Shown here one piece after another: positions 1 to 39,432 of a stretch of 39,432 nucleotides of DNA; position 1 is the stretch's first letter; each line of letters opens with the position of its first letter. The stretch lies in IMG/VR virus record IMGVR_UViG_2706794693_000007. One strand, 5' to 3'. This DNA is from a virus (Duplodnaviria > Heunggongvirae > Uroviricota > Caudoviricetes). A program made the translations under genes and the position numbers. The notes under the pieces are model-generated. The model ran no database searches. It worked only from the letters and a program-made list of their open reading frames with translations, and was not told the DNA's origin.

Positions 1-14
1 TCGGTTTACGGGAA
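1..14. other. Half of a gix-like recombination site (TCGGTTTACGGGAA), truncated by window start
   Basis: Exact reverse complement of the left half of the site at 1306-1331; matches the GGTTTnCnGGAA-type half-site of Gin/Hin/Cin crossover sites as recalled. Confidence 0.5.
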
Positions 15-353
15 ACGGTAAACAGGGCGGCGAATGCCCTGCCATCGGACGGCACCGCCGTTGCCGCGAACAGGCTGGCAAATGCCCACACAATTAATGG
101 TGTTCCCTTTGACGGGACGCAGGATATCACTATCTCATCAGGAACAGTAACCGCCATAAGACTGGGGTCGGTGACCGCACATATGCCCGGAACATGGGAA
201 AGCTGGGATCTGAATCTGGGGGGCGGCAATGTTCTTACCGGAATTAAAGTACAGGATGTCGGTAAGAATACGGCAGATAACGTCGGCGGCGTGTATTACC
301 GGCCGTTGCAGTATCTGTTAAATGGAGCATGGGTGACGGCTGCAAGTATATAA
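1..353 (+). CDS. Tail fibre alternative variable C-terminal segment (S'v-like), 5'-partial, silent in this orientation
   Basis: Frame open from position 2; first ~40 aa ([26 protein letters not shown]...[12 protein letters not shown]) match the minus-strand fibre after its gix site, then diverge; shared C-terminal RPLQ motif. Confidence 0.6.
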   Translation, partial: GLRETVNRAANALPSDGTAVAANRLANAHTINGVPFDGTQDITISSGTVTAIRLGSVTAHMPGTWESWDLNLGGGNVLTGIKVQDVGKNTADNVGGVYYRPLQYLLNGAWVTAASI

Positions 354-384
354 TGATATTCAGAAGGCCTTCCGGCCTTCTTTA

Positions 385-906
385 TTACTGTGGCTGCTCA
401 GGCCATTTAATGGCGTTAAATTCAGCTTCTGTTTTAATGGCGGGTAGTTCCATTTTCTTCACCTGACTGATGTATGCCATCCATTGGGTAAGTGCTGCTC
501 TGTCTTCATCGCTGATGGTGCCCAGTTGTAGCTCCGTTCTCCAGTCATTAATTTTTTCATATGCCTGATTAAGATATGACTGGCGCATTGCTTCCAGTTT
601 TCTTGCGTAGTTAACCGGAATACGGGAGATTATGCCATTATCAAACTTCCAGTTTCCTGAAATATCCGTGCCTTCAGGGAGTTCATCGACCTCAACCACA
701 GAAAACCCCGCAGGATACAGCGCCGAGGCGTCCTGTGATATTGAGCAGATAACGCCGCTGTCAGGTGTTATGCAAAGTTTATATTTTTTGGTGAATAATG
801 GCAGGGATTCGTAGAAATCCTTACCATCTTCACTCTGGAAATACTGAACATTATTACCATATGGCATATTTTCAGGATAATAACGGGTTATATTTTTTAG
901 TTCCAT
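385..906 (-). CDS. Tail fibre assembly protein (Tfa / Mu U-like chaperone)
   Basis: 173 aa; strong RBS AGGAGG upstream of ATG; lies directly downstream of the minus-strand fibre variable part; C-terminal ...KWPEQPQ resembles Tfa family. Confidence 0.75.
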   Translation of the reverse strand: MELKNITRYYPENMPYGNNVQYFQSEDGKDFYESLPLFTKKYKLCITPDSGVICSISQDASALYPAGFSVVEVDELPEGTDISGNWKFDNGIISRIPVNYARKLEAMRQSYLNQAYEKINDWRTELQLGTISDEDRAALTQWMAYISQVKKMELPAIKTEAEFNAIKWPEQPQ

Positions 907-960
907 AAAATCCTCCTGGAAATAAATCTGTTTTAAAATATATTATTTACTGACTATTTA

Positions 961-1537
961 TAACTGAGATACCGTAATCCATGTACCTCCGACTAATTTT
1001 TGCAGGGGTCTGAATGCTATAAAATCGTTTGAAGCATCAACTTTACTGTCAATCTGCAGGCCTGCCATAACATTACCGTACGCAGAGTAATATGCCCCAC
1101 CGTACATTACCTGCCTGTTCTCTGCTCCCAGCCTGATATCCTGGATATATCGGGAATCCGCATCCTGCTGTGTTATACCAGAAGTGATGTTTATGTCCTG
1201 CGTCCCGTCAAAGGGAACCCCATTAATATTTCTTGGGGTGGCGAGTCTATTCGCGGCAACGGCGGTGCCGTCCGATGGCAGAGCATTCGCCGCCCTGTTT
1301 ACCGTTTCCCGTAAACCGACGTTATCGATAAAAGCCCCTTTATCCGGAATGTCTGCGCCGTTCTGCTCCCTGCGCAGGTAACGGTTATCACCTTCGCTTT
1401 TGCTGTAAACATCCAGATTATTACGGGCGGTTCCCTTATTCTCCAGGTCGGCGAGATTCTGATCCTTCGCCAGGGCATTAACGTCAGCGGGACCAAGACT
1501 GTTTTTTGTGGCAAGCGTCCCCAGACCAAGATAACCA
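961..1537 (-). CDS. Tail fibre protein, 3' portion (end of constant part plus variable Sv part); 5' continues at 6894-7275 if the 71-bp overlap is joined
   Basis: Open frame from 1537 to stop at 961-963; translation ...[35 protein letters not shown]...[17 protein letters not shown]; first 71 nt identical to 6894-6964. Confidence 0.75.
1306..1331. other. gix/hix-like 26-bp crossover site (TTCCCGTAAACCGACGTTATCGATAA) inside the tail-fibre gene
   Basis: Two 12-bp imperfect inverted half-sites around a 2-bp core; lies at the constant/variable junction of the fibre gene. Confidence 0.55.
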
Positions 1538-1750
1538 NNNNNNNNNNNNNNNNNNNNNNNNNNNNNNNNNNNNNNNNNNNNNNNNNNNNNNNNNNNNNNN
1601 NNNNNNNNNNNNNNNNNNNNNNNNNNNNNNNNNNNNNNNNNNNNNNNNNNNNNNNNNNNNNNNNNNNNNNNNNNNNNNNNNNNNNNNNNNNNNNNNNNNN
1701 NNNNNNNNNNNNNNNNNNNNNNNNNNNNNNNNNNNNNNNNNNNNNNNNNN
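1538..1750. other. Run of 213 N (unresolved or masked); hides the 5' end of gin
   Basis: N characters in sequence. Confidence 0.95.
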
Positions 1751-2253
1751 GTGCAGGATGTGAGCTGTTTTTCGAAGACAGAATAAGCGGTAAGACAAGG
1801 GAGCGTCCCGGACTTAAACGCGCATTAAAGCGACTCCGGCCAGGGGATACCCTGCTGGTCTGGAAACTGGATCGCCTTGGACGCAGTATGCAGCACCTTG
1901 TCCTTTTAACAGAAGAACTCCGGCAACGCGGCGTTAACTTCCGCAGCATTACGGACAATATTGATACATCCACTCCCATGGGACGTTTCTTTTTCCATAT
2001 AATGGGCGCGCTGGCGGAAATGGAGCGGGAACTCATTATTGAACGTACACGCGCGGGTCTTGCTGCTGCCCGTGCTCAGGGGCGTCATGGCGGCAGACCT
2101 CAGAAACTGACAGAGAAAGAGCGGGAGCAAATCGCCCGTTTGCTGGCTAATGGCGAGTCCCGTAAACAAATCGCACTGATATTTGATATTGGCCTTTCCA
2201 CCCTTTATCGTTATTTTCCTGCCTCACCAGCTCCGTCACCAAAAGTACCGTGA
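1751..2253 (+). CDS. gin: Serine DNA invertase of the Gin/Hin/Cin/Pin family, N-terminal ~24 codons lost in the N-run
   Basis: Translation AGCELFFEDRISGKTRERPGLKRALKRLRPGDTLLVWKLDRLGRSMQHLV...MGRFFFHIMGALAEMERELIIERT...GGRPQKLT closely matches the Gin/Hin resolvase-type catalytic core and C-terminal HTH. Confidence 0.9.
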
Positions 2254-2338
2254 CGCTTTTTTGAATTTCCGCAAAACACATATTTTTCAGCGGTCGCTAT
2301 TCTGACTCTGTTTAATTCAGAAACAGGCAGAAAAGACG

Positions 2339-4393
2339 ATGTCAGACTCCAAGTGGAAAATGCTCTCCGCCATGCCCGGAGAGTTTTCAGTCAAGGTTGC
2401 CGGTGGCACGGTGGCATTTATTGAAAGCCCTTTCCGCCCTTCGGGTAATAAAGGGGGGATCACCTTCGCAGACTGCGTGATCCGCTTCAGCACGAAAGAG
2501 CCATTATGGGTAATGCCGGTATCCGGTAATCCCAGTGCAGAAATCACCAGTTCAGGCGTGACTGGCATCATTCCAATCACATCTGACGTGGCCGGAACGC
2601 TCACGCCCTCCGACTGGAATGCACCGGATAACGCCGGGCCTTCCGGTAGCACGAATGGCAGCAGTTCAGAGCCGGAATATTACTTTGTTGTCATTCTCGC
2701 GGGTCAGTCAAATGGCATGGCCTACGGCGAGGGGCTGCCGTTACCGGATTCGTTTGACCGCCCGGACCCACGCATTAAGCAACTGGCACGCCGCAGTACG
2801 GTAACGCCCAACGGTACGTCGTGTACATACAACGACATCATTCCGGCAGACCACTGCCTGCATGATGTTCAGGATATGAGCGGGATAAACCACCCGAAAG
2901 CTGATCTGGCAAAAGGCCAGTACGGGACTGTCGGTCAGGGGTTGCATATTGCCAAAAAACTGCTTCCCTATATCCCACAGAATGCCGGGATACTTCTGGT
3001 GCCCTGTTGTCGTGGCGGGTCAGCATTCACCACTGGAGCCGACGGCTCATTCAGTGAGGCCAGCGGTGCTTCCGCTGATTCTTCACGCTGGGGGGCCGGT
3101 AAACCTCTGTATCAGGACCTGGTAAGCCGCACCAAAGTCGCGCTGGCGAAAAACCCGAAAAACAAACTTCTGGCTGTGGTCTGGATGCAGGGAGAGGCAG
3201 ACCTTGCCTCAGGAAGCCAGCAGCATAATAGTTTATTCACGGCCATGGTTCAGCAGTTCAGAACTGACCTGGCTCCGCTTGCTGCGCAGTGCGTGAGTGG
3301 AAATGCCACCACGGTGCCGTGGATTTGCGGTGATACCACGTATTACTGGAAAAACGCTGGCACCGATAAATATGAGGCAGTATACGGTGGCTACAAAGGC
3401 AAGGAAGCACAGAAAATTTTCTTTGTACCGTTCCTGACGGATGAGAATGGACAGAGCACGCCAACGAATGCTCCGGCGGAAGACCCGGATATTGTGGCTG
3501 TCGGGTATTACGGTGCAGCATCCCGAACCCAGGGCAGTTTTGTTTCGACACAGCGTGACAGCCATTTCAGCTCATGGGCACGCAGGGGCGTCATTTCAGA
3601 CCGTCTGGCCTCAGCTATTATGCTCCATGCAGGGCGCACGGCTGAACTGATGCGTGGGCAGACCGTGACACCACCGGATGAGAAGCCGTCACCTGATACA
3701 CCATCAAAACCGTCCACGCCACCCGCAGACACCACGACGATGAGTACGCTATTTGCTTACCGGGCATCTGAGTCTGAAGGACGGTTGACACCACAGGGTT
3801 GGGCTGCCGGAGGTGGCAAGGCTCAAATCGTGGATGATGCCGGAGCCAGCGGGGGTAAGGCAATGAAACTGACCAAGGAAACAGGAAGAGCCCCCTGGTA
3901 CCTTGAGCATGATGCTGGTAATGGTGCGGACCTGCTGGGTAAAGGTGGTCTTGTCAGTTGTCGTTTTAAACTCGATGGCGCGCTTACGGCTAATCAGTAC
4001 GCACTGGCGCTGTACTGGCCGGTTTCTGCCCTGCCGCAAGGGGTTACTCTGGAAGGAAATGCCGGTCATAACCTGCTGGCATCGTTCTACGTACAGAGCG
4101 ATGCCACAGACCTTAACGTGATGTATCACAAAGGAAACACGGCGCAGAACACGAAGCTGGGGTCATTCGGCGCATTTAATAACGAATGGCATACGCTGGG
4201 CTTCCGTTTTGCCGGTAACAACAGTATTGAGGTGACGCCGGTCATTGATGGTAAGGACGGGACACCATTCATGCTGTCGCAGTCTCCGGTCGGCACGTTT
4301 ACGGCAGACAAGTTGCGCGTGACCGATATCACTAAAAATGCGACTTACCCGGTACTGATTGACAGTATCGTGGTGGAAGTGAATAACGCGTAA
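2339..4393 (+). CDS. SASA-family (sialate O-acetylesterase-like, NanS-p-like) SGNH hydrolase with N-terminal domain, Pro/Thr-rich linker and C-terminal lectin-like domain
   Basis: 684 aa; motifs YYFVVILAGQSNGMAYGEG (GQSN block) and AVVWMQGEADL (WxQGE(S/A)D block); candidate Asp/His at RDSHFS; linker TPPDEKPSPDTPSKPSTPPADTTT; start codon uncertain (weak RBS). Confidence 0.6.
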   Translation: MSDSKWKMLSAMPGEFSVKVAGGTVAFIESPFRPSGNKGGITFADCVIRFSTKEPLWVMPVSGNPSAEITSSGVTGIIPITSDVAGTLTPSDWNAPDNAGPSGSTNGSSSEPEYYFVVILAGQSNGMAYGEGLPLPDSFDRPDPRIKQLARRSTVTPNGTSCTYNDIIPADHCLHDVQDMSGINHPKADLAKGQYGTVGQGLHIAKKLLPYIPQNAGILLVPCCRGGSAFTTGADGSFSEASGASADSSRWGAGKPLYQDLVSRTKVALAKNPKNKLLAVVWMQGEADLASGSQQHNSLFTAMVQQFRTDLAPLAAQCVSGNATTVPWICGDTTYYWKNAGTDKYEAVYGGYKGKEAQKIFFVPFLTDENGQSTPTNAPAEDPDIVAVGYYGAASRTQGSFVSTQRDSHFSSWARRGVISDRLASAIMLHAGRTAELMRGQTVTPPDEKPSPDTPSKPSTPPADTTTMSTLFAYRASESEGRLTPQGWAAGGGKAQIVDDAGASGGKAMKLTKETGRAPWYLEHDAGNGADLLGKGGLVSCRFKLDGALTANQYALALYWPVSALPQGVTLEGNAGHNLLASFYVQSDATDLNVMYHKGNTAQNTKLGSFGAFNNEWHTLGFRFAGNNSIEVTPVIDGKDGTPFMLSQSPVGTFTADKLRVTDITKNATYPVLIDSIVVEVNNA

Positions 4394-4400
4394 GCAGGAT

Positions 4401-4442
4401 AAAAAAATGCCGCCGGTAAGGGAAAACAAGAAACCGGCGGCA
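4401..4442 (-). terminator. Candidate intrinsic terminator, oriented for the minus strand
   Basis: 9-bp GC-rich stem GCCGCCGGT/ACCGGCGGC with 15-nt loop; run of 7 T follows on the minus strand, only an A-rich tract on the plus strand. Confidence 0.4.
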
Positions 4443-4537
4443 AAAAGATCGTTATATCCAAAGCAAAAAATGCAGTGCACCTTTTTACCTAACAGATATT
4501 ACCGGTGTCAACACCATGTCAATAATTGGGAGGGATA

Positions 4538-4720
4538 ATGACATTTTTACAGCTTATTTTATTGTATTTCTGCACGGCAGTATGTGCGTTATATCTGGTG
4601 AGTGGTGGTTATAAGGCCATCAGAAATTATGTTCGCCGCAAAATTGAGGACGCAGCAGCTGAAAAACTCAGTAAAACAGCGCAGGTAACTCCGCTCCCAA
4701 AAGACCCGACCCAGCCCTGA
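4538..4720 (+). CDS. Small membrane protein (60 aa, one N-terminal TM helix, charged C-terminus), function unknown
   Basis: RBS GGGAGGG 3 nt before ATG at 4538; MTFLQLILLYFCTAVCALYLVSGGYKAIRNY... hydrophobic N-terminus. Confidence 0.5.
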   Translation: MTFLQLILLYFCTAVCALYLVSGGYKAIRNYVRRKIEDAAAEKLSKTAQVTPLPKDPTQP

Positions 4721-4755
4721 TTGCAGGGCTTTATTCCCGCATAAGGAGGATATAC

Positions 4756-5010
4756 ATGCCAGAAATTAAAGGCACCGTCACTGAAGACCTGGTAAAACAG
4801 GCACTGTATTCCGGTGAAGTAAATAAGTTGCTGAAAGCGCAGGTCCGCAAGGATTTTGAGGCACAAATCGACACTTACGTTGATGAAGTGCTGGCAAAAC
4901 TTATTGGGCCAGCAGTTGCGGCCAGTGATGCTGATAATGAGCCGAAAACCGACGCGCAGCCAGAGCAACCAGACCCGGCTCAGCCCGGAACTGACAGTAC
5001 CATGATGTAA
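4756..5010 (+). CDS. Hypothetical 84-aa acidic protein
   Basis: Strong RBS TAAGGAGG 7 nt before ATG; coding-like composition; hairpins downstream. Confidence 0.6.
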   Translation: MPEIKGTVTEDLVKQALYSGEVNKLLKAQVRKDFEAQIDTYVDEVLAKLIGPAVAASDADNEPKTDAQPEQPDPAQPGTDSTMM

Positions 5011-5177
5011 CAATACAAACCGGTGGTGTCCTCTGCCGGTTTGACACTAATGAAAACATCTTTGCCGCTATCCAGCCATATGTAATCGCTGGATAGTATT
5101 TCGTATTCAGAAATATAGCTGCTTATGGAGCAGTCAATCCTGCTTCCCCATCCGGGCAGGCAAATGAACCGGTATCA

Positions 5178-5471
5178 TTAGTCCGATTCACGCTTTTGTA
5201 GAATCGTTCCCAGAATGCTATACAGCTCATTAGCCTGTTGCTCCATCATTGAGACGGAGGCTATACGGTGCAAAGTGATTTCAGGAGGTGGCACACCTCC
5301 ATCTTCTTGCTGTGGAGGAAAAACATAAGATTTAATAAAAAAGTTGAAGCATATGAACTCTCCCGCACTCGAACTGTATTTGCAGGCATCTGAATAATCG
5401 GAAAAATAATCATTATAGATTTCCGCATTTTCAATCATTTTTCGATTTCTCGTCGTTACATGATTGTCCAT
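5178..5471 (-). CDS. Hypothetical 97-aa protein, convergent with the 84-aa gene
   Basis: RBS AAGAGG before ATG at 5471; AT-rich ORF with no recognisable motif. Confidence 0.5.
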   Translation of the reverse strand: MDNHVTTRNRKMIENAEIYNDYFSDYSDACKYSSSAGEFICFNFFIKSYVFPPQQEDGGVPPPEITLHRIASVSMMEQQANELYSILGTILQKRESD

Positions 5472-5594
5472 AGCAGCCTCTTACGCTGGCAATTAACCAA
5501 TTGACTTCTATAAATTAGTTGATTTGTTTGCTTTGCGGTATTCAAATGTACAATCATTCAGCACTTATGCGTTACAGCACCGTTTAAAATTAGT

Positions 5595-5680
5595 GATCAA
5601 ACTCATAAATTTTCGCTAATGACATTTCGTGTTATTTGTTGTATCAATTAAATAAATCAAATCGATCGTTTTTGTCGATC
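5595..5680. promoter_or_regulatory. Upstream regulatory region of com-mom with three GATC (Dam) sites
   Basis: GATC at 5595-5598, 5664-5667, 5677-5680, the last two inside near-direct repeats TCGATCG; Mu mom is known to be controlled through upstream Dam sites. Confidence 0.4.
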
Positions 5681-5727
5681 GATTGAGTGATAAAGATATC
5701 AACAACAAAGCAGGAGGTTATGCGGCC

Positions 5728-5928
5728 ATGTATCGAAACATACGGTGCCGACATTGTAACAAGCTACTGGCACGAGCCAGCTTCAGTTATCTGGAAGTTA
5801 AATGTCCGCGCTGTAAAACCCTCAATCAAATCACATCTCAGAGCGCCACAGAGCACCCCACATACACAAGGAAATCCTGTCGTGGGGAACAGAAAGCAAG
5901 TTACATCCCGTATCATCAGCACGCCTGA
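5728..5928 (+). CDS. com: Com-like zinc-finger translational activator of mom
   Basis: 66 aa; AGGAGG RBS 10 nt upstream; [14 protein letters not shown]...[10 protein letters not shown] with CxxC...CxxC; immediately precedes and overlaps mom as in Mu. Confidence 0.75.
5856..5887 (+). promoter_or_regulatory. Stem-loop sequestering the putative mom start codon (candidate Com target)
   Basis: CCCCAC (5856-5861) pairs with GTGGGG (5882-5887); the 20-nt loop contains AAGGA; GTG at 5882 is in the mom frame. Confidence 0.45.
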
Positions 5929-6619
5929 ACTTATTCACTATAACGACAATATCGTCGGTTATGGCTCCCGTGAGTTACGGGTTGAGACAATAAGTTGCTG
6001 GCTGGCCCGGCTGGTCGTCGTCAATAAACATTACAGCCATCGTTTCGTAAATAATTCCTACCTTCATCTGGGCATATTTTCAGAACGGGAGCTGGTTGGC
6101 GTAATGCAATGGGGTTATGCCCTTAATCCAAACAATGGTGCACGCGTCGTAACTGGCACGCAGAACCGCGAATATATGGAGCTTAACCGGTTATGGCTGC
6201 ATGACTGTATGCCGAGAAACTCCGAATCAAGGGCAATCAGTTACGCGCTCAAACTAATCAGACAACTTTATCCGCAGGTGCAGTGGGTTCAGTCGTTTGC
6301 AGATGAGCGTTGTGGCTGTCTTGGTGTCGTGTACCAGGCAAGCAATTTTGATTATGTAGGCAGTCATGAAACAACATTCTATGAACTTGATGGCGAGTGG
6401 TATCACGAGATTTGCAAGAATGCAATCAAACGAGGAGGACAGCGAGGTGAACATCTGCGGGCTAATATCGACAGAGCCAGTGTTCATAAATTCCGTCAGT
6501 TTCGTTACATCCGGTTTCTGGACAAGAGAGCCAGAAAACGCCTTAACACAAAGCTATTCAAAGTCCAGCCTTACCCAAAACCACAAACAGTTAAAACTGG
6601 TTTGAAAGAGAGTGAATGA
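5882..6619 (+). CDS. mom: Mom-like DNA adenine modification protein; start assigned to GTG 5882, uncertain
   Basis: Long ORF in the frame overlapping the 3' end of com; com-mom architecture, size about 245 aa; no ATG between com and residue ~130 so a non-ATG start is required. Confidence 0.65.
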
Positions 6620-6664
6620 ACGCTTAAAAACTCATTCTAAAACTCAAAAGAAAAGCGCCGATTT

Positions 6665-6681
6665 AGTATCAAATAAGTTGC
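6665..6681 (+). repeat. Prophage end-like repeat (GTATCAAATAAGTTGCG) just downstream of mom
   Basis: 17-nt near-match to GTATCAAATGAGTTGCC at 38755-38771 and to repeats at 38817 and 38902; preceded by GCCGATTT as at 38767. Confidence 0.45.
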
Positions 6682-6691
6682 GTATCGGCGT

Positions 6692-6893
6692 NNNNNNNNN
6701 NNNNNNNNNNNNNNNNNNNNNNNNNNNNNNNNNNNNNNNNNNNNNNNNNNNNNNNNNNNNNNNNNNNNNNNNNNNNNNNNNNNNNNNNNNNNNNNNNNNN
6801 NNNNNNNNNNNNNNNNNNNNNNNNNNNNNNNNNNNNNNNNNNNNNNNNNNNNNNNNNNNNNNNNNNNNNNNNNNNNNNNNNNNNNNNNNNNNN
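6692..6893. other. Run of 202 N (unresolved or masked)
   Basis: N characters in sequence. Confidence 0.95.
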
Positions 6894-7275
6894 TCGCCAG
6901 GGCATTAACGTCAGCGGGACCAAGACTGTTTTTTGTGGCAAGCGTCCCCAGACCAAGATAACCACGGGCCAGACGCTGGGCCTCCGCACCGGCATCAGCA
7001 ATTTCTTTCAGGTTATTTTTCCGGGAAAAGGCATTCGCAGCGATAATGGCTTTAATGGACAGCGTAAGCTGGTTTAACTGCGCCTTATCCGGCTGAATAC
7101 TGGCTTCAGCCAGAATATTCAGCAGTTCGGCCTGGAGAATATTCAGCCAGTCCTGACCAATCCAGCTGATACCTTTTTGTCCGTCACCTTCGGTAAACCA
7201 GGTGGTGGTATTACTCTGCGCCGGTGCCAGCGCAGGCATATTCGCCACGCCGGAATTATTATCAACATGAAACAT
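6894..7275 (-). CDS. Tail fibre protein, N-terminal constant part (Sc), 3' end runs into N-run
   Basis: ATG at 7275 overlapping upstream stop; MFHVDNNSGVANMPALAPAQ...[24 protein letters not shown]; last 71 nt identical to 1467-1537. Confidence 0.75.
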
Positions 7276-7835
7276 TAAATAGTCTCCTCTTCATGGCTGT
7301 TTGCATAAACGTAAATAAACGTCTGCCATGCAGGCTTATAACGGTTCAGAATACATTCCAGCGCACCGCCTTCATAAATACGCAGCGGCGTGAGAATATC
7401 ATCCAGCACATTCATATTCCGGTAGCCGGTTTCACTGTTAATCGTGACAATACTGACCCACTGCGAATCCGGTGAGGGCTGAATGTCAATCTGATAACCA
7501 AACTCCGCCGCAAACCGGATATAAAATTCACGGTTCAGCGAGGGCTTCATCCGGTATTTATTTCCGGCATAACGCTGTCGCTCCGTGAGGGTGGCTCCGG
7601 CCATATCACACTCGGGAAGCCCGAGATAACGCTCCCAGTCTTCCAGCAGCAGGCGCGACGTGTCAGGGAAACGCTCGGCAAGCAGCTGTTTACCCGTCCA
7701 GGATACACGCGCTGTCGAATGACTGAGGCCCAGACATAATGATGCCAGTACGGATGACGGACGCTTGTCCCATGCCAGCCCGTCAGGCAGTAACTGCAAC
7801 AGGGCGCGCTGATGCGGGGTCAGGGTTACAGCCAT
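7275..7835 (-). CDS. Tail/baseplate protein (Mu gp48-like, P2 gpI-like)
   Basis: 186 aa, position between baseplate J-like gene and tail fibre; overlapping stop/start. Confidence 0.7.
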   Translation of the reverse strand: MAVTLTPHQRALLQLLPDGLAWDKRPSSVLASLCLGLSHSTARVSWTGKQLLAERFPDTSRLLLEDWERYLGLPECDMAGATLTERQRYAGNKYRMKPSLNREFYIRFAAEFGYQIDIQPSPDSQWVSIVTINSETGYRNMNVLDDILTPLRIYEGGALECILNRYKPAWQTFIYVYANSHEEETI

Positions 7836-8908
7836 GTGATTTCTCCTACCGTCAGCAGCTCACTGTCTCCCGCCTGAACTGACGTCAGCGGACTGCGCAC
7901 TTCAAAATCCTCCAGATTTTTCACCCCTGCCACCGCCCGCCAGAAAGACGACGGCAGAACCAGACCGCCGGGCCGGGATTCGTTATACAACAGGTCGGTC
8001 AGCGCCTGTTTTACGGCCGCCTGATTCTCCGGTGTTTTCGGGATGATCCTGATGCTGAAGGGCACCGGCTTATTGGTCAGTTTAAACACGGTCACCGTCG
8101 GCCCCAGAGGCTGTCCGACAGGCTGGCCGGTCGCCGGATCATCATGACTGCGGATATAATCCGCCACCCGCTGAACATCACCGTCACCGGGGAAAATATC
8201 CGGGTTATTATCCTGAACAAACGTTACCCCCACGCTGCCCGCCTGCGGCCATTCCGGGCGGCACCATGCCCGCGTCACGCCCGGCACTTCACGCGCCCAG
8301 CGTTCAAAATCATACTGCGTGCCGCCGGACGGTGGATTCTGCACCCGGAAAACCAGACGGGAAAGCAGCTCCGGCACGGTTTCCACATCCGCACCACCGG
8401 TGATCCCCGTTCCGGTCACCGTGGCCGTCTGGTTGATCCCCGCCTGCGGTGTGATAAATGTCAGTTTTGTCCCTGCCGGGGCATTCCCCGCACGACCGGC
8501 ACTTTCGGCTTCCACACTGACATTCAGCGTACCGGCCTTACCGGTCAGGGAGGTGGTGATACGGTAAACCACGCCATCACTTCGCTGGAGAAGCACACCT
8601 TCCTTGATCCCCGCATCCGTGGTCAGCATCAGCTGAACCGGCCCGTCCCCCCGAGAGGCAGGCTTACGCATGACGCCCCAGAATGCACAGTGTTTCAGCA
8701 GTTCGGCTTCATCGGCTTCGGTCGGGATGATCTGACGCGCAATCCAGGCCAGATGCTCATGCTCCTGAGCAGATAACCCTGCCTGAGCGTAAGCAATGGC
8801 ATTCAGGGTGGTTTCATTCACACCCGGCTGCGAGCCGGGCAGGCGCTGGCTGATATCCTGCTGTGTCTGCGTGATTAACTGTGCCAGCGGTAAAGGCTGA
8901 TAAGGCAT
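7826..8908 (-). CDS. Baseplate J-like protein (Mu gp47-like)
   Basis: 360 aa, synteny in baseplate cluster. Confidence 0.75.
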   Translation of the reverse strand: MPYQPLPLAQLITQTQQDISQRLPGSQPGVNETTLNAIAYAQAGLSAQEHEHLAWIARQIIPTEADEAELLKHCAFWGVMRKPASRGDGPVQLMLTTDAGIKEGVLLQRSDGVVYRITTSLTGKAGTLNVSVEAESAGRAGNAPAGTKLTFITPQAGINQTATVTGTGITGGADVETVPELLSRLVFRVQNPPSGGTQYDFERWAREVPGVTRAWCRPEWPQAGSVGVTFVQDNNPDIFPGDGDVQRVADYIRSHDDPATGQPVGQPLGPTVTVFKLTNKPVPFSIRIIPKTPENQAAVKQALTDLLYNESRPGGLVLPSSFWRAVAGVKNLEDFEVRSPLTSVQAGDSELLTVGEITWL

Positions 8909-9345
8909 TACTCCCCCTTAAGATCAGCATAAAAAATCATGGGCCTCACTGAACCATCAGGCAGGGTTATGCGCACCGAAAGCGCCAGCCGCGCGTGTCC
9001 CACACGTTCTGCATGACAGACCACGGATGACGCCACGCCATCCTGACTGAGCCAGCCCAGCGCCTCATCCGCGTAAGCACGGGCACGGCTTATCACCGAG
9101 GCCAGCGTTTTTTCCCGGCTGAGAAGCCACAGACGGGAGCCAATGGGGCGCGGGCGAAAACTGTCTCCCCACCATCCCCGGCGGTCGCGCGTACCGTCAG
9201 GGATTTCATCCGATGCCAGCGCCCGGCGGTCAGTAAACAGCGAAATCAGAACGGCCGTCAGCAGACTGTCATCCGTCAGCAAGTCGGCACCGTTCAGTTG
9301 CAGCGAACCGCACCCCTGATCCCATACAATTGCAATATCAGCCAT
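8908..9345 (-). CDS. Baseplate wedge protein (GPW/gp25-like, Mu gp46-like); start moved to ATG 9345
   Basis: GGAG RBS before MADIAIVWDQG...; upstream part of the 193-aa ORF overlaps the preceding gene. Confidence 0.65.
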   Translation of the reverse strand: MADIAIVWDQGCGSLQLNGADLLTDDSLLTAVLISLFTDRRALASDEIPDGTRDRRGWWGDSFRPRPIGSRLWLLSREKTLASVISRARAYADEALGWLSQDGVASSVVCHAERVGHARLALSVRITLPDGSVRPMIFYADLKGE

Positions 9346-9952
9346 TCTCCGGCGCTCCTGTCTTACTGCCTTTGCCGTTATCCTGATGCACATGGCCGGA
9401 ATAGGTGATCCCGGCAATAACGGCATCAGACATCGTGAACAGCCCGTCTGATTTACCTGTACCATCAAGCACGAAATTACCCTTAACATGCAGGTTTTTA
9501 TCCACCGTCACATTGCCCGTAAAGGTGGCCTCCGGCGTATCCACCCGCATCCCCTCATCGGCGTAAATCTCCAGCATTTTGCATGTCACAATAATGCGAC
9601 CATCCTTTGTTAACCGTATCCGGTGCCCCTCATGGTGATACACCCCCGTATCTCCGGCTGTGAGTCCGGTCGGGCGGCTGCGCCGGTCTTCCACCACAAG
9701 CACCACAGTCTGATCCCGCTGTCCGCCCAGACAGGCAAAAAAGGTTTCCGCACCCGGCAGGGGAACGCTGATCTGCCCGTACTGCTGGGGACGCTCCACA
9801 TCATCAAAGGTTTCGCCGTCCATGCCGGTGAGCTGCACATTCTGCATTTTCAGTTCGTCATGTGTGCCGGTCAGAACGCCCCGGCCAAACAACAGGCGAA
9901 TACCGCGCGTTACCGGGGCAATCAGGCGGCTGAACACTTCATCATTCATCAA
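9338..9952 (-). CDS. Baseplate assembly / central spike protein (gpV-like, Mu gp45-like)
   Basis: 204 aa, synteny. Confidence 0.65.
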   Translation of the reverse strand: MMNDEVFSRLIAPVTRGIRLLFGRGVLTGTHDELKMQNVQLTGMDGETFDDVERPQQYGQISVPLPGAETFFACLGGQRDQTVVLVVEDRRSRPTGLTAGDTGVYHHEGHRIRLTKDGRIIVTCKMLEIYADEGMRVDTPEATFTGNVTVDKNLHVKGNFVLDGTGKSDGLFTMSDAVIAGITYSGHVHQDNGKGSKTGAPENG

Positions 9953-11066
9953 AGCTGATCCCCTGTTTTTTCATCTGCTGGCGAATAAAGGCATCAACAT
10001 CGTCACCGGAACCACCCCGGCCCTTACTGTCCGGCTCTGCCGGAACGATAAAGCCGTCACGCGGTGCCAGTACCAGCCGGGTGACTTCCCCGTTATGTTC
10101 ATCAAGTAAAAACTCCACCTGACAGACCAGCAGTTCAGTCTGTTCTATACCGAAACGCAGGGCTGAAACACCGGTCAGCAGATTGACATCCCATAACCGG
10201 CCATCATCCCGGAACCAGCCACGCACGGTGGCAGAAAACCGTTCTGAACGGGCAATCGCACGGCGCATTTCACGCAGGGCACGCTGCCGTGCACCGGTGG
10301 TGTCTGTCTGTTGATCGGCGAGGATGATTTTCGACCGGTAGCGGCCGATCTGCTCATCACTGATGACGCCCACAGGTGCTGCCAGACGGGCGGCGGATTC
10401 GCTGTCTCCCCGTTTGCCACCACCGCGCCCGTGTCCCCGGACACGGTATTCGCTGTATCGTCCTCGCCAGTCCGTGTTGTAATCGGCATCAAGCAGGTTA
10501 TCTCCCAGCACCAGTCTGTCCGTCTGCTGGCTTCCTGCCTGGGTGAACACCAGATCGCCGTCAGCATTACTGGTCACCAGCACCCCGCGATGCCGGGCAG
10601 CACGGGTCAGCGCATCCGCCACGGTTTCTGAGTTTTCCAGCGTAAAAGAGCTGAAGGGGCGTGCAGCCGTGTCGTCGTTAACCTGCCAGCGCACGGCTAT
10701 CCCGAAGGGCGCACATAAATCTGCGGCAATCTGTGCCAGCGTCCGGTTGCGCCACTGGCTGCCGGGATGGATGGCGGCACAGTCCACCAGGTCGCCGGTT
10801 TTATCCCGACCGCTGATGCTGATCTGATGACGGGTTGCACTGATCCGCTGACTGACCTGATCCAGCCAGCCACTGATGACCGTCTGCCCGTTAATTCTGA
10901 GCGTCAGGGACTGACCGGTTCGCAGGGCTGAGGGGATGCGCTCACCGGGCAGCATCAGCCCCAGTTCAAACGACCCGGCCAGATGCTCCAGCGAGCGACG
11001 GACGCTGACCGTCAGCCAGCCGGAAAAAATACTGCCACCGATATACAGTTCAATCCTGCTGCTCAC
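9942..11066 (-). CDS. Tail protein of the P2 gpD / Mu P family (baseplate hub)
   Basis: 374 aa, synteny downstream of DNA circulation protein. Confidence 0.7.
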   Translation of the reverse strand: MSSRIELYIGGSIFSGWLTVSVRRSLEHLAGSFELGLMLPGERIPSALRTGQSLTLRINGQTVISGWLDQVSQRISATRHQISISGRDKTGDLVDCAAIHPGSQWRNRTLAQIAADLCAPFGIAVRWQVNDDTAARPFSSFTLENSETVADALTRAARHRGVLVTSNADGDLVFTQAGSQQTDRLVLGDNLLDADYNTDWRGRYSEYRVRGHGRGGGKRGDSESAARLAAPVGVISDEQIGRYRSKIILADQQTDTTGARQRALREMRRAIARSERFSATVRGWFRDDGRLWDVNLLTGVSALRFGIEQTELLVCQVEFLLDEHNGEVTRLVLAPRDGFIVPAEPDSKGRGGSGDDVDAFIRQQMKKQGISFDE

Positions 11067-12408
11067 TGATCACCTCCACGCTGCGGCCACCCGGAACAAA
11101 AACCGGATCGGGGATATTGTTTCTGCGGACAAAATACTGCCAGCGACTGCTGTTGCCGGTGGCACGGTACAGCGTGACCAGTGCCGGTTCGGTGGTGCGA
11201 ACCATGACCTGAAAAGCACCGGGAAGATGCACGCTCCGTGTGGTTAAATCTTCTGTCAGCGCAAGCCCTGCATCACGTAATGCAAGGGCAGTCCCGGTAT
11301 AGCCCTGTGCGGACAGATCCAGCACCTGTTGTTCCATGGCATCGCTCAAATCCCGGTTGATACGCTGCACATCAGCAGAACTTTCCAGCCAGGCCAGTCC
11401 GCCCGAACGGTCAGTATCCTGAACGTGCGTCGTATTCTGCCGGATGACCTGATCCAGCAGTTTTCCGAGCGTCTGTGCCTGCGACACCAGGGTTGCACTC
11501 TGCATCACGCTCCGCAGCAGACGGATATTTTTCTGTGCCGCAGGCGTCAGGCCAATCAGGCGCTGTGGATCATCCTGTTCGCTGAGGGTGTAACGCAGGG
11601 AGGAAAGTGTGCGGTACAGCTGCGGCATGGCCTGCTCTGCCATGCTGTCACGGTTTGTGGTCAGGCTGCCGGACGGCGTTCCGGCTTTTCCGGTCAGAGA
11701 CAGGGAAGGATCGCCGGGCAGCCCGGTCAGCACGGCAAACATTCCGGCCAGCGATTCAGCCATGCGACGGGGCGCATTAATCAGGGCGGCGGCATTGCCT
11801 TTCAGGGCAGTAAAACTGGCCGTAAAGGCACTGATATCCTGCACAATCCCCATCCCCGAAACGGCATTCTCCAGTGCATCAATCTTATCGCTGATGGTGT
11901 CGGTCATGGCCTGTACATCATGCAGACCGTCTGAAATCACCGTCCAGCCGTCTGAAAGCGTGTTAAACAGCTGATTCATTGCTGAGCCGCTTTTCTGCTC
12001 CAGCGCAGCTGCCGTATCTTCTGCCACCGCAGGGGCGGTATCGTCACTGGCGGGGATCACGTTGATCGTGAACTCAACCGTTCCCTGCTCGCTGGCGTTA
12101 TAACGGCTTTCAAAGCTGTTTATCAGCACGTTTAACGTGCCGTAATCCGGGTGCATCAGTTCACCGGCACCGGGTGCACGCAGCGCATCACGCAGGCGGC
12201 TTCGCTGTGTCTGAAGATCGTCTCCGGTCACCAGAACCGTGAATGTGAACTCCGGGAGTTTTGGCCCCAGATCATCCGCACCGCCGCTTTCACGCAGTGG
12301 GTATTCACGGCGCACAATGTTACGTCCGCCCCGTTCCCGCTGCTCCTGATAAACCAGGAACGGTACGCCACGAAAGGAGCCACGCCCCGGCGTGTCAGTA
12401 GAGGCCAT
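11050..12408 (-). CDS. DNA circulation protein (Mu N-like tail protein)
   Basis: 452 aa, follows tape measure gene. Confidence 0.7.
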   Translation of the reverse strand: MASTDTPGRGSFRGVPFLVYQEQRERGGRNIVRREYPLRESGGADDLGPKLPEFTFTVLVTGDDLQTQRSRLRDALRAPGAGELMHPDYGTLNVLINSFESRYNASEQGTVEFTINVIPASDDTAPAVAEDTAAALEQKSGSAMNQLFNTLSDGWTVISDGLHDVQAMTDTISDKIDALENAVSGMGIVQDISAFTASFTALKGNAAALINAPRRMAESLAGMFAVLTGLPGDPSLSLTGKAGTPSGSLTTNRDSMAEQAMPQLYRTLSSLRYTLSEQDDPQRLIGLTPAAQKNIRLLRSVMQSATLVSQAQTLGKLLDQVIRQNTTHVQDTDRSGGLAWLESSADVQRINRDLSDAMEQQVLDLSAQGYTGTALALRDAGLALTEDLTTRSVHLPGAFQVMVRTTEPALVTLYRATGNSSRWQYFVRRNNIPDPVFVPGGRSVEVISEQQD

Positions 12409-14452
12409 AGTTCCCTCCGTTCCAGACGTTCACATCCAGGCCATGCTGTGCGGTATCATCCACATCAATACTGCGCGCCCGCCAGCCTTCAGGGGCAACA
12501 AGCTCCACCCGTGCGGCGGTTTTCGCGGTGGCCTGTCCGCCGTTTTCGTCACTGCCGCCACGCAGTTTCTGCCAGGCCTGCGTCAGCCAGCCCCCCAGAT
12601 AATCACCGAGATAGCTGCCCACCGTGGAACCAATGGCAACCCCGACCGGACCGGCAGCCGCCCCCAGCGCGCCACCGGCGATACTTCCGGCAAGGGAACC
12701 CACGGCACCGGCTTTATCGGCTGCACTGGCGCTGCTGTCCAGCAGTACAGGAGCCGCCATGGCACCGGCCCACAGGGCACCACCACCCAGCCGACCGGCA
12801 CCACGGAACAGCCCGGCAAAACGCCCCAGCCCCATGCGGTTTCCGGCCGCCGTTAGCAGACCACCGGCACGGCTCATCATACGACCGAAGAAGCCCTGTT
12901 TACCGGCACTCTCCGCCAGTTGCTCACCGGCAGTCACGACGGTCGTGACACCCCGTCCACGTCCGGGGCCGCGTTTTTTACGGCCGCGCACGGTTTTGCC
13001 GTCACCGCTGACCACCACATCCCCGCCACCTGAGGCCAGGCCACCCGCAGGCCAATTGGTGACCAGCACGGGCTGAACGGCAGCCGGATTTACCCCGGTA
13101 AGGAAATTCAGGAACCGGCCAGCGCGTCCGGGCTGCGTTCCCGGTACAGTGGTCTGCGGTTTGCGGAAGGGCGACGTCAGCACGGAGGTCATCGCCATGC
13201 CATAGCGTAAGGGGGTTGCGCCGAGACGTAATGCCCCCGTCCCCGCAAACCTGAGCACCTTCAGCGCACGGGAGGCGAGATACATATACATCAGGTACTT
13301 TGCGGCGGTCTGCGCACCCTGACCAATGCGATCCAGCGCATCGCCATAACCGGCGTCGCGCAGTGCCTGAAGCGTTTCCCTGACTTTCTGAATGACCCGG
13401 TAAAAGCCGGTCGCAGCGTCTCTGGCATACTCAAATCCCTGATTCAGGGCTGAGGCCGTCTGTGTGGCCAGCTTATCCTGTAAGCCGCTTTTCTGTGCCG
13501 CATCAGCATAATCCAGAAAGCCTTTCAGGCTCTTTTTCAGGCTGTCAAACGGTCCCTTTGCCATCACCTCGCGGGCAAATCCGTCCCAGACATCGCCCAT
13601 CATGGACGTCATTCCCGTCCAGGAATTCATGGCGTTTTTCTGGGCACCTTTTGCCTGTTCGGCCATCACCTGAAATAACAGGCGAATGCTGTCCGGTCCC
13701 AGTTTTCCTTTCTCGCCTTTCTCACGGATGATCTTCTGGTTTACACCCAGCTTATCGGCCAGCAACTGGTAAACGTTAATCCCGTATCCGGTCAGAATAT
13801 TGGCGTCCGCTGCCTGGATACTCTGGCGGGCAAACATCTGTTTGAGTTGCAGGGACGCACCCTGTGCATCTGACAGTGACCAGCCGTGATAGCCGCCCTG
13901 ATCCTGAAGCATGGTAATAAAGCGACGGGCTTCCCTGTCACTCATACCGAACCCGCGACTGGAGGCGTATTCCTGCATAACCCCCGCCAGCCCCCAGGTG
14001 GTGTCTTTGGCGTTCTGTACCGCCCAGGCTTTCACTGCTTCCGTTTTTGCCGTATCGCCATGATTAATGGCGTTGAGACGCAGAATATAGTTCTCCATCT
14101 CTGCGGCCGGGCGGATAAAGGCTTTATTAAACCCGTAGACCGCAGCCCCTCCCGCCAGCATCCCGTAAAGGTTGCTTATCCGCCCGATGGTGCCGGTAAT
14201 GCTGCCCTGAAGGCGGTCAAAATCTGACGTCACCGTGCGGATACTGCCACGAACACCGGCAAGCGTTCGCTGCATACGGGAGCCGACAAGTTCTGTCTCC
14301 TGACCGGCACGACGTGCTGCATTTCCAAGACCACCCAGCCCCGTCCTGCCGGAACGGGAGAATGCCCCCAGCTCCTGTGACCACTGGCGGGATTTGGCAG
14401 AAATATTGCCGAGTAAATCGACAATCAGGGAGGCTTTCAGGTTTTTTGCCAT
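12395..14452 (-). CDS. Tail tape measure protein
   Basis: 685 aa, Gly/Ala-rich C-terminal half, position after tail tube/chaperone genes. Confidence 0.85.
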   Translation of the reverse strand: MAKNLKASLIVDLLGNISAKSRQWSQELGAFSRSGRTGLGGLGNAARRAGQETELVGSRMQRTLAGVRGSIRTVTSDFDRLQGSITGTIGRISNLYGMLAGGAAVYGFNKAFIRPAAEMENYILRLNAINHGDTAKTEAVKAWAVQNAKDTTWGLAGVMQEYASSRGFGMSDREARRFITMLQDQGGYHGWSLSDAQGASLQLKQMFARQSIQAADANILTGYGINVYQLLADKLGVNQKIIREKGEKGKLGPDSIRLLFQVMAEQAKGAQKNAMNSWTGMTSMMGDVWDGFAREVMAKGPFDSLKKSLKGFLDYADAAQKSGLQDKLATQTASALNQGFEYARDAATGFYRVIQKVRETLQALRDAGYGDALDRIGQGAQTAAKYLMYMYLASRALKVLRFAGTGALRLGATPLRYGMAMTSVLTSPFRKPQTTVPGTQPGRAGRFLNFLTGVNPAAVQPVLVTNWPAGGLASGGGDVVVSGDGKTVRGRKKRGPGRGRGVTTVVTAGEQLAESAGKQGFFGRMMSRAGGLLTAAGNRMGLGRFAGLFRGAGRLGGGALWAGAMAAPVLLDSSASAADKAGAVGSLAGSIAGGALGAAAGPVGVAIGSTVGSYLGDYLGGWLTQAWQKLRGGSDENGGQATAKTAARVELVAPEGWRARSIDVDDTAQHGLDVNVWNGGNYGLY

Positions 14453-14455
14453 GGG

Positions 14456-14656
14456 TTACTGCTTCGTTCTGAGAATTTTTTCGGTCTGTCGGCAGTGCCG
14501 GTAAAGCTGCGATAAGGGGAGGTTAAGCGCCCACTCCGGGCCGCTTTTTGTCACCATCCCCAGCACAATTGCGGCTTCTTCAATCTGATCCCGGCACTGC
14601 ATCTGGTCGCCCCCGTTCAGCGACCAGCTTTCCGGCCATCGCGGAATCAAGCAGGC
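14456..14656 (-). CDS. Out-of-frame extension of the tail assembly chaperone (candidate programmed frameshift product, G/GT-like)
   Basis: Frame opens only 2 codons upstream of the chaperone overlap, has no ATG, overlaps the last 25 codons of the chaperone ORF in the +1 frame and stops 3 nt before the tape measure start. Confidence 0.4.
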   Translation of the reverse strand, partial: ACLIPRWPESWSLNGGDQMQCRDQIEEAAIVLGMVTKSGPEWALNLPLSQLYRHCRQTEKILRTKQ

Positions 14657-14909
14657 TTACTGCCGCCATCAGTCGGGAGAGATCGCGCTCGCTGAGCTGT
14701 CCTATCTGACGCGGAGACAATGGCCCCTCAATCTGGCCGACAGCGGCAATCTGACGGCGCAGCAGCGCAATGCCGCGCAGTGCCGGTGAGGCCACAAGAA
14801 CCGGACCGTTTCGGGTTTCCATAAGACGCTCGGCCTCGCTCTCCGCATCAATGCTGTCTTTTGCCGTCAGTTCGCGGAAGGTGACGCGGTATTCACGGGA
14901 TTCCCCGAA
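14580..14909 (-). CDS. Tail assembly chaperone (Mu gp41-like), 5' end hidden in N-run
   Basis: Open frame after the N-run ending ...LVAERGRPDAVPGSD; position between tube and tape measure. Confidence 0.5.
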   Translation of the reverse strand, partial: FGESREYRVTFRELTAKDSIDAESEAERLMETRNGPVLVASPALRGIALLRRQIAAVGQIEGPLSPRQIGQLSERDLSRLMAAVSLLDSAMAGKLVAERGRPDAVPGSD

Positions 14910-15161
14910 NNNNNNNNNNNNNNNNNNNNNNNNNNNNNNNNNNNNNNNNNNNNNNNNNNNNNNNNNNNNNNNNNNNNNNNNNNNNNNNNNNNNNNNNNNN
15001 NNNNNNNNNNNNNNNNNNNNNNNNNNNNNNNNNNNNNNNNNNNNNNNNNNNNNNNNNNNNNNNNNNNNNNNNNNNNNNNNNNNNNNNNNNNNNNNNNNNN
15101 NNNNNNNNNNNNNNNNNNNNNNNNNNNNNNNNNNNNNNNNNNNNNNNNNNNNNNNNNNNNN
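14910..15161. other. Run of 252 N (unresolved or masked) spanning the end of the tail tube gene and the start of the chaperone gene
   Basis: N characters in sequence. Confidence 0.95.
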
Positions 15162-21349: not shown

Positions 21350-21470
21350 ATTGCCTCCGCATAAAGGATGAATATAAAATAAACAGGCGGTCAGTGTACG
21401 CTTAACTGGTAAAGTCGGTGCCTGCCTCCGGGTGGATCATGTATGCGGGTTCGACCCCCGCCACTGACCG

Positions 21471-38754: not shown

Positions 38755-38913
38755 GTATCAAATGAGTTGCCGATTTTATAATAAATGACTAATTATTGCA
38801 CAATCGGTATCAAATAGACCTTATCCGCACATCTAGCCATCACCTGTTTTATTTCAGTATCTTACAGGTGATTTCACCTCCTTTCACTAAACCCCTTGTC
38901 GGTATCAAATGAT
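38755..38913. repeat. Prophage end region with three direct copies of a GTATCAAAT(G/A) motif (candidate transposase binding sites)
   Basis: Copies at 38755-38766, 38817-38827, 38902-38913; sequence ends ...TTCA at 38916. Confidence 0.5.
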
Positions 38914-39237
38914 TCACCTGGTTATATGTCGCCAGTCGATACCTTCCAGCAGCATCGCCAGCTGCGCCTGTGTAAGGAACACTTTGCCATCACGGGCTGA
39001 CGGCCAGGCGAAGCGCCCACGCTCCAGCCGTTTGGTCAGGAGGCACAGTCCGTCACTGGTGGACCACAGCAGTTTAACCTGACTGCCGCTGCGGCCCCGG
39101 AAAATGAAAACATGGCCGGACATGGGATCGTCTTTCAGCGCCGTCTGTACTTTCGCAGCCAGGCCGTTGAAGCCATTTCTCATATCGGTGATACCGGCAA
39201 CCAGCCAAATTTTGATCCCGGAAGGTAACGGGATCAT
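38914..39237 (-). CDS. tnpB: IS66-family TnpB (Orf2), probably with altered C-terminus at the prophage junction
   Basis: MIPLPSGIKIWLVAGITDMRNGFNGLAAKVQ...LEGIDWR characteristic of IS66 Orf2; stop codon lies in the phage-end TTCA. Confidence 0.8.
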   Translation of the reverse strand: MIPLPSGIKIWLVAGITDMRNGFNGLAAKVQTALKDDPMSGHVFIFRGRSGSQVKLLWSTSDGLCLLTKRLERGRFAWPSARDGKVFLTQAQLAMLLEGIDWRHITR

Positions 39238-39432
39238 CGCTTCAGTTCCTGTATCAGCAGAGTCAGGAGCTTTTCGCTGACATTGCCATTGAAGCGGAGC
39301 GTCCCGTGCCGGAACGTTACCTCACAGCTGATACTGAGGGTTTTCGGGTCCTCTGCGAGCGATTCTGGCTGTTCGGCAGCTGCATCGAGAGTCACAGGAA
39401 GTAGCTGGGGGCTCTCTGAAGAAGGTAATAGC
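38917..39432 (-). mobile_element. IS66-family insertion sequence fragment (tnpA-tnpB), lacking its transposase gene on this side
   Basis: IS66 orf1/orf2 pair with ATGA overlap; expected third gene replaced by prophage sequence. Confidence 0.7.
39234..39432 (-). CDS. tnpA: IS66-family TnpA (Orf1), 3' part only
   Basis: Open frame ending ...NGNVSEKLLTLLIQELKR with stop overlapping the tnpB start as ATGA. Confidence 0.6.
   Translation of the reverse strand, partial: LLPSSESPQLLPVTLDAAAEQPESLAEDPKTLSISCEVTFRHGTLRFNGNVSEKLLTLLIQELKR

Follow-up and report, generated by a model that had tools for sequence, protein, structure and literature searches.

The first 1,319 nt of the window, by which we mean the whole 39,432-nt stretch of DNA that was analysed, very probably correspond to the G segment of Mu and form, in an E. 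coli prophage of the Mu-like Sp18 type, a Gin/gix-type switch of the tail-fibre tip. The initial annotation had proposed a Gin-type switch that exchanges the C-terminal end of the fibre, and this proposal is supported by the crossover sites, by the homology of the invertase to Gin and by the occurrence of both orientations in nature. The mechanism is a textbook one in a common E. coli prophage family, and no new mechanism is involved. The useful results are a corrected gene order, a complete second site, comparative proof of inversion and the finding of a single chaperone gene. The main value of the analysis lies in annotation and assembly; biologically, it describes another textbook host-range switch.

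The segment is bounded by two 26-bp imperfect palindromes, inverted relative to each other and with the same asymmetric 2-bp core, the second of which is complete only in relatives that are 100% or 99.6% identical (Table 1). The site that had been reported within the fibre gene, TTCCCGTAAACCGACGTTATCGATAA, is found at 1306–1331. Its inverted half, reported at the very start of the record, is there as well: window bases 1–14 read TCGGTTTACGGGAA, the reverse complement of the first 14 nt of TTCCCGTAAACCGACGTTATCGATAA, and bases 1–2 are the core dinucleotide itself. This 14-mer of half-site plus core occurs only twice in the 39.4 kb when up to two mismatches are allowed, compared with 0.21 occurrences expected by chance. 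Alignment with Mu gix gives identity at 22 of 26 positions for the fibre-side site and at 21 of 26 for the gin-side site. Genomes with 100% identity to 1–1537 contain a complete second site, with the half that the record lacks, directly before "position 1". In one of these, E. coli DLI.5a, TTCCTGAAAACC immediately precedes that position and is the missing outer half-site. The gin-side site is also complete in JE86-ST05 and 600029, and its inner half and GA core are the same in all three strains. The outer half-sites of the two sites diverge from the first base past the core. On the inner side, the repeat arms are exact over the 37 nt that lead away from the core; mismatches appear first at position 38 and then at 71, and 69 of the leading 70 nt are identical.

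Table 1. Features of the invertible segment, the fibre and invertase genes and the scaffold gaps, with the sites used for comparison. Coordinates are those of the window.
Feature	Position	Strand	Description
Gin-proximal crossover site, inner half	1–14	−	TTCCCGTAAACC plus GA core; outer half-site outside the window
Inverted-repeat arm 1	1–79		Pairs with 1241–1319; 95% complementary over 79 nt
Sv', alternative fibre C-terminus	1–353	+	116 aa; stop at 351–353; silent in this contig's orientation
Hairpin	362–381	+	GC-rich, terminator-like; between the convergent Sv' and chaperone genes
Tail-fibre assembly chaperone gene	385–906	−	Sole chaperone gene; co-oriented with Sv; Mu U homologue
Sv, fibre C-terminus	958–1319	−	119 aa and a stop codon; joined to Sc in this contig
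Fibre-proximal crossover site, complete	1306–1331	+	TTCCCGTAAACC-GA-CGTTATCGATAA; core at 1318–1319; 22/26 versus Mu gix
Sc, constant fibre region (part)	1320–1537	−	0 mismatches over 218 nt versus JE86-ST05 Sc
Scaffold gap, first N-run	1538–1750		213 N; in real genomes, 147 nt beside gin with the outer half-site, the gin promoter region and gin nt 1–71
gin-type serine invertase gene	1751–2253	+	Codons 25–190; Resolvase and HTH_7; misplaced and flipped by scaffolding
Second N-run	6692–6893		202 N
Sc, 5' part of fibre gene	6894–7275	−	ATG at 7275; continues into 1466–958
Third N-run	14910–15161		252 N
Gin-side site, full			TTCCCGTAAACC-GA-GGTTTTCAGGAA; complete in relatives; 21/26 versus Mu gix
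Mu gix used for comparison			TTCCTGTAAACC-GA-GGTTTTGGATAA

These sites are embedded in a fibre cassette whose constant 5' part lies outside the segment and whose two alternative 3' parts lie inside it, on opposite strands and both in frame. The two opposite-strand fibre C-termini of the initial annotation are confirmed: plus-strand 1–353 and minus-strand 958–1319 are each open when fused to the constant part. Fusion of Sc to Sv gives a 296-aa fibre identical to the annotated DLI.5a fibre, and fusion of Sc to Sv' gives a 293-aa ORF identical to the annotated JE86-ST05 fibre. Both forms match the tail-fibre family PHROG 1833, the Sc-Sv' form with E = 7e-141. In the junction valine codon at Sv', the core TC occupies codon positions 2–3. 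The two tips are 47% identical to each other. The stretch of Sc at 6894–7275 is orthologous to Mu S residues 1–191 (47% identity, E = 2e-49; PDB 5YVQ chain A, E = 5e-51), and the fibre is 47% identical to Mu S over the constant part and across the crossover. There, the fibre-side site encodes FIDNVGLRE, aligned to the FIQNLGLQE that spans Mu gixL, and the crossover falls at the same codons; the fibre peptide at the crossover likewise aligns to Mu FIQNLGLQETVNRA, which spans gixL. Further along, the 65-residue distal tip of Sv is homologous to Mu S residues 437–502, the C-terminal end of that protein. Because of this orthology to Mu S/S', a change of tip would be expected to alter the receptor recognised and hence the host range.

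The order in which these features appear in the record calls for correction. The window is a scaffold of four contigs (1–1537, 1751–6691, 6894–14909 and 15162–39432), and these are wrongly ordered. Bases 1467–1537 are an exact copy of 6894–6964 (71 nt, 100% identity), a contig-end overlap whose two copies lie flush against N-runs. Therefore, the fibre gene that passes 1331 toward 1537 continues at 6965–7275. As judged from sequence comparison, the true order is 1751–6691 reversed, 147 missing nt, 1–1466, and then 6894 onward. Complete relatives are arranged in Mu order, from the left end through the tail genes, Sc, 147 nt, the segment, another 147 nt, gin and com-mom to the right end; strain 600029, which is 99.6–99.98% identical to all four contigs, has this Mu-like order. 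In the record, contig 1751–6691 carries on its plus strand gin (from codon 25), the SASA/DUF6645 gene, com, mom and most of the right end, and the rest of the prophage lies on the minus strand, toward c, ner and MuA at 35.6–38.7 kb. The missing 147 nt next to gin are absent everywhere in the window.

Another account of the N-runs, as length-preserving masks over contiguous real sequence, was considered and set aside. Two complete genomes with 100% identical flanks have 242 nt where the window has 252 N; the N-runs are therefore estimated scaffold gaps. Moreover, no contiguous model fits the first gap, and the order of the contigs contradicts every complete relative. An invertible switch can fragment or scramble short-read scaffolds; here, the gin/mom contig was flipped and placed inside the fibre gene. 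That contig ends, at 6620–6691, ~58 nt before the phage right end. The "GTATCAAA" transposase-binding-type repeats in this stretch are direct, not inverted, relative to those at 38757–38910, which was the first clue to the flip.

Complete genomes provide natural examples of both orientations. In the chromosomes of NCCP 13983 (5,189,943 bp) and FORC_029 (5,189,944 bp), the prophage occupies the same locus. After in silico inversion between the cores, the two loci show 0 mismatches over 19,319 nt; without the inversion there are 819 mismatches, all of them within the segment. In this way the breakpoints can be narrowed to the 37 nt of exact identity but not to the dinucleotide. The Sc-Sv fusion occurs in 6 and the Sc-Sv' fusion in 23 of 5,426 complete E. 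coli genomes. The segments of JE86-ST05, 600029 and others are 99.6% identical to that of the window and, with respect to Sc and gin, are turned the other way round. Three strains, DLI.5a and TOE17 (both 100% identical to 1–1537) and AST46, each hold both fusion types, in different prophage copies. Comparison between genomes, rather than within the sequenced strain, thus indicates that the segment inverts in nature at the two sites, at a resolution of 37 nt.

In DLI.5a, one of the copies is defective (locus L001, 7352–7923 and 9848–10303), with a frameshift in gin and the loss of a stretch that extends from the tail gene next to the fibre as far as DUF2730. This copy keeps a segment 100% identical to 1–1537, and the second copy is in the other orientation.

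The same inversions could in principle arise by RecA-dependent recombination across the 79-nt inverted repeat, taken as ordinary fibre-gene homology. The near-perfect match of the leading 70 nt of the arms would suit such a process, as would a breakpoint resolved no finer than 37 nt. But the repeat ends exactly at a 26-bp dyad-symmetric site that agrees with Mu gix at 21–22 of 26 positions and has the GA core in both copies. This site also stands at the same codon position as Mu gixL, and a Gin homologue with 74% identity to that of Mu is encoded alongside. Moreover, a repeat of 37–70 nt is a poor RecA substrate. We therefore regard RecA-dependent inversion as extremely improbable and attribute the inversions to site-specific recombination of the Gin type.

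The invertase gene that the initial annotation had placed near the segment is present at 1751–2253. Its visible 503 nt are identical to an intact 190-aa recombinase gene of strain 600029, whose product contains the motif YIRVSTNDQ; its first 71 nt fall in the scaffold gap, outside the window. The product matches Pfam Resolvase (E = 2e-51) and HTH_7, has the motif MLIGYIRVSTNDQ and is the 74% identical Gin homologue referred to above. In the Gin/Hin/Cin family, a Fis-dependent enhancer is located within the 5' portion of the gene for the invertase. In the relatives, gin is identical to Mu at 113 of its first 150 positions, which include the perfect blocks TCAACAAATGACCAGAATAC and TGTGCAGGATGTGA, which presumably lie where the Mu enhancer would be expected. 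Most of this presumed enhancer region falls in the window's gap.

With the start of gin outside the window, the segment of this particular strain might be a fossil, its sites and repeats persisting while its invertase is inactive and its orientation frozen. DLI.5a provides an example of such a combination, for there a frameshifted gin stands beside a segment 100% identical to that of the window. The visible 503 nt of gin match an intact gene exactly, however, and isogenic chromosomes differ by the inversion only. In addition, other Pin/Gin-type invertases in E. coli could act in trans on such a segment. A frozen segment is thus improbable, if somewhat less so than inversion by RecA, and the segment is probably a working switch.

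The initial annotation had further noted that the record starts precisely at a crossover and had ascribed this to mixed orientations in the sequenced population. The break is indeed located exactly at the core; the proposed cause fits the evidence, although it is unproven. Within 150 nt of the two sites there are three contig ends, and both contigs that flank the segment start exactly 147 nt from a core, with that end facing arm 2 of 1–1537. A contig that ends exactly at the core is the outcome of a graph assembler when reads leaving arm 1 enter two flanks. In a pure population, by comparison, an exact repeat of 37 nt should not break the assembly, if the 71-nt overlap is the assembler's word size. 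These considerations favour the presence of both junction types in the sequenced reads. Both junction types would fit within-culture switching and two prophage copies of opposite orientation alike.

It is useful to weigh these two origins. If the assembler collapsed two Mu-like copies of opposite orientation, or if the break at base 1 is a generic scaffolding error, the switch would still be real, but the start of the record would be uninformative on ongoing inversion. DLI.5a, TOE17 and AST46 do hold both fusion types in separate copies, and several Mu-like prophages are present in JE86-ST05. Furthermore, the N-runs of 213 and 202 match no distance expected from either orientation. Collapsed copies would, however, be expected to break the assembly at two places where it runs on. 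Contig 15162–39432 is unbroken through the phage left end into IS66, and contig 6894–14909 is unbroken past the point at which the defective DLI.5a copy diverges; these unbroken contigs argue mildly for a single copy. The common 147-nt offset of the flanking contigs, both facing arm 2, is likewise the pattern to be expected if arm 2 linked both flanks. None of the de Bruijn or scaffolder models that we tried could account for gaps of 213 and 202 or for the 147-nt offset that the flanking contigs have in common. On balance, a collapse of copies or a scaffolding error is unlikely, although of all the alternatives considered here it is the one with the best claim; mixed orientations in the sequenced culture may be the origin of the break.

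Our model of the switch follows the Gin/Hin family. A Gin-family invertase, which in real genomes is encoded beside the segment, would bind the two inverted 26-bp gix-like sites. Both sites would be cut at the central GA, the ends rotated by 180 degrees and religated, and the 1.3-kb segment would thereby be flipped. As in other members of the family, the site-bound dimers would be expected to synapse on a Fis-bound enhancer in supercoiled DNA, and we infer both this dependence on Fis and the enhancer and activity of the switch in this particular strain. The fibre gene begins outside the segment (7275 to 6894, then 1466 to 1320) and reads through the fibre-proximal site. In the orientation of the contig, it ends in Sv (958–1319), with the chaperone gene next; in the other orientation, it ends in Sv' (1–353), with no chaperone gene after it.

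This single chaperone gene may be relevant to how the two orientations function. The protein encoded at 385–906 matches Pfam Caudo_TAP (E = 5e-19), PHROG 136 and PDB 5YVQ chain B, which is Mu U (E = 4e-16). The segment contains no second, U'-like chaperone gene, and 3' of Sv' there is only a hairpin. Upstream of 906, no minus-strand promoter for the chaperone gene was found at the scan threshold. Because the single chaperone gene is co-oriented with one tip only, inversion might toggle chaperone co-expression along with the fibre tip and so make the switch asymmetric. We offer this tentatively and consider it doubtful. If it is correct, Sv' may fold without a dedicated chaperone or borrow one from another promoter or prophage; alternatively, one orientation may give particles with poorly assembled fibres, an ON/OFF-like layer on the host-range switch. 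In complete genomes, the chaperone-less Sv' orientation is the commoner one (23 versus 6). The layout of one chaperone and short tips is a modest variation, useful for asking when tips require a dedicated chaperone.

It is also useful to compare this segment with that of Mu. The overall layout is shared: a constant fibre part, a site, the invertible segment, a second site, gin, and com-mom at the right end. Shared, too, are a Gin that is 74% identical, sites that agree at 21–22 of 26 positions and have the GA core, an orthologous S and a chaperone homologous to U. There are differences as well. The segment is ~3 kb in Mu but 1.3 kb here, the variable tips are ~330 aa in Mu but 116 and 119 aa here, and the fibre is 504 aa in Mu but 293–296 aa here. 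Mu has both U and U', whereas this segment has one chaperone gene, so that its two orientations would lack the functional symmetry of those in Mu. Also unlike Mu, this prophage has an exact inverted repeat of 37 nt and two outer half-sites that are unlike each other. Between gin and com there are four extra genes, one of which encodes a 684-aa SASA/DUF6645 protein. At the DNA level, the rest of the prophage shows only a distant relationship to Mu.

Closer relatives are found among the prophages of E. coli. The Mu-like prophage Sp18 of E. coli O157:H7 Sakai belongs, with its relatives, to the same family; shared features are gin, the DUF6645 gene, a segment with a single chaperone gene and a fibre of ~300 aa. 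In an O157:H7 genome, the fibre-side site is identical and the one-chaperone layout is the same. The O157 copy differs in its variable tips and in the sequence of its chaperone, the match (~92%) being confined to the repeat and the constant part, and its gin-side site is more degenerate. The invertible region of the Sp18-type Mu-like prophage has already been mentioned in the literature. In RefSeq, the fibre is labelled "hypothetical protein" and gin "recombinase family protein", the silent tip is entered as a truncated pseudogene, and the invertible element is annotated in none of the ~230 complete E. coli genomes that carry the Sp18-type prophage family.

Other invertible tail-fibre segments in E. 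coli prophages include the e14 P segment and the segment of EPEC E2348/69. For the e14 P segment and its invertase Pin, phase variation of a prophage fibre segment has been demonstrated in clonal E. coli cultures (PMC4272514). For the Mu-like prophage of EPEC E2348/69, both orientations were found to coexist in clonal cultures, with ~60% in the forward orientation (Goldberg et al. 2014; PMC4272514). We considered whether the "Mu prophage" inversion of E2348/69 involves the same element as ours and rejected this identification. The repeat of the E2348/69 segment, AAACCTTGGTTTGGGAGAA, is of another site type, the segment includes a pair of chaperone genes, and the annotation shows no adjoining gene for an invertase. 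More exactly, at 5192–7434 of the E2348/69 locus (L014), the interval from the segment to the end of the prophage has no annotated invertase gene. Inversion of the E2348/69 segment is therefore presumably catalysed in trans.

Finally, the remainder of the window is that of a Mu-like prophage. The ORF map, together with the RefSeq annotation of relatives that are 99.6–99.98% identical, identifies c, ner, MuA, MuB, Mor, com and mom, with tail genes in Mu order. At ~38917–39432, the left end of the prophage adjoins an IS66-family tnpB/tnpA element, within which the window ends. A megablast search of complete E. coli genomes gave no match to this phage/IS66 junction, and an exact 40-mer across it was likewise absent from the viral and genome contig collections. 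In relatives, a "tRNA-OTHER" is placed by RefSeq between the genes for virion morphogenesis and head morphogenesis (locus L007, 20674–20753), which corresponds to window ~21350–21470; a scan of the whole window with ARAGORN gave no tRNA. Between gin and com/mom, the plus strand of the window at 2339–4393 encodes the 684-aa protein, in which a sialate-O-acetylesterase-like SASA/SGNH region is followed by a C-terminal DUF6645 (PHROG 143). The gene is conserved in all relatives, including the O157 Sp18-type prophages, and its product could be a receptor-modifying or lysogenic-conversion enzyme. The 695-aa MuA is encoded on the minus strand at 35629–37716. An identical protein occurs in >1,000 blocks of the public collection, at many insertion sites and beside many host genes, which suggests a widespread and recently mobile phage.
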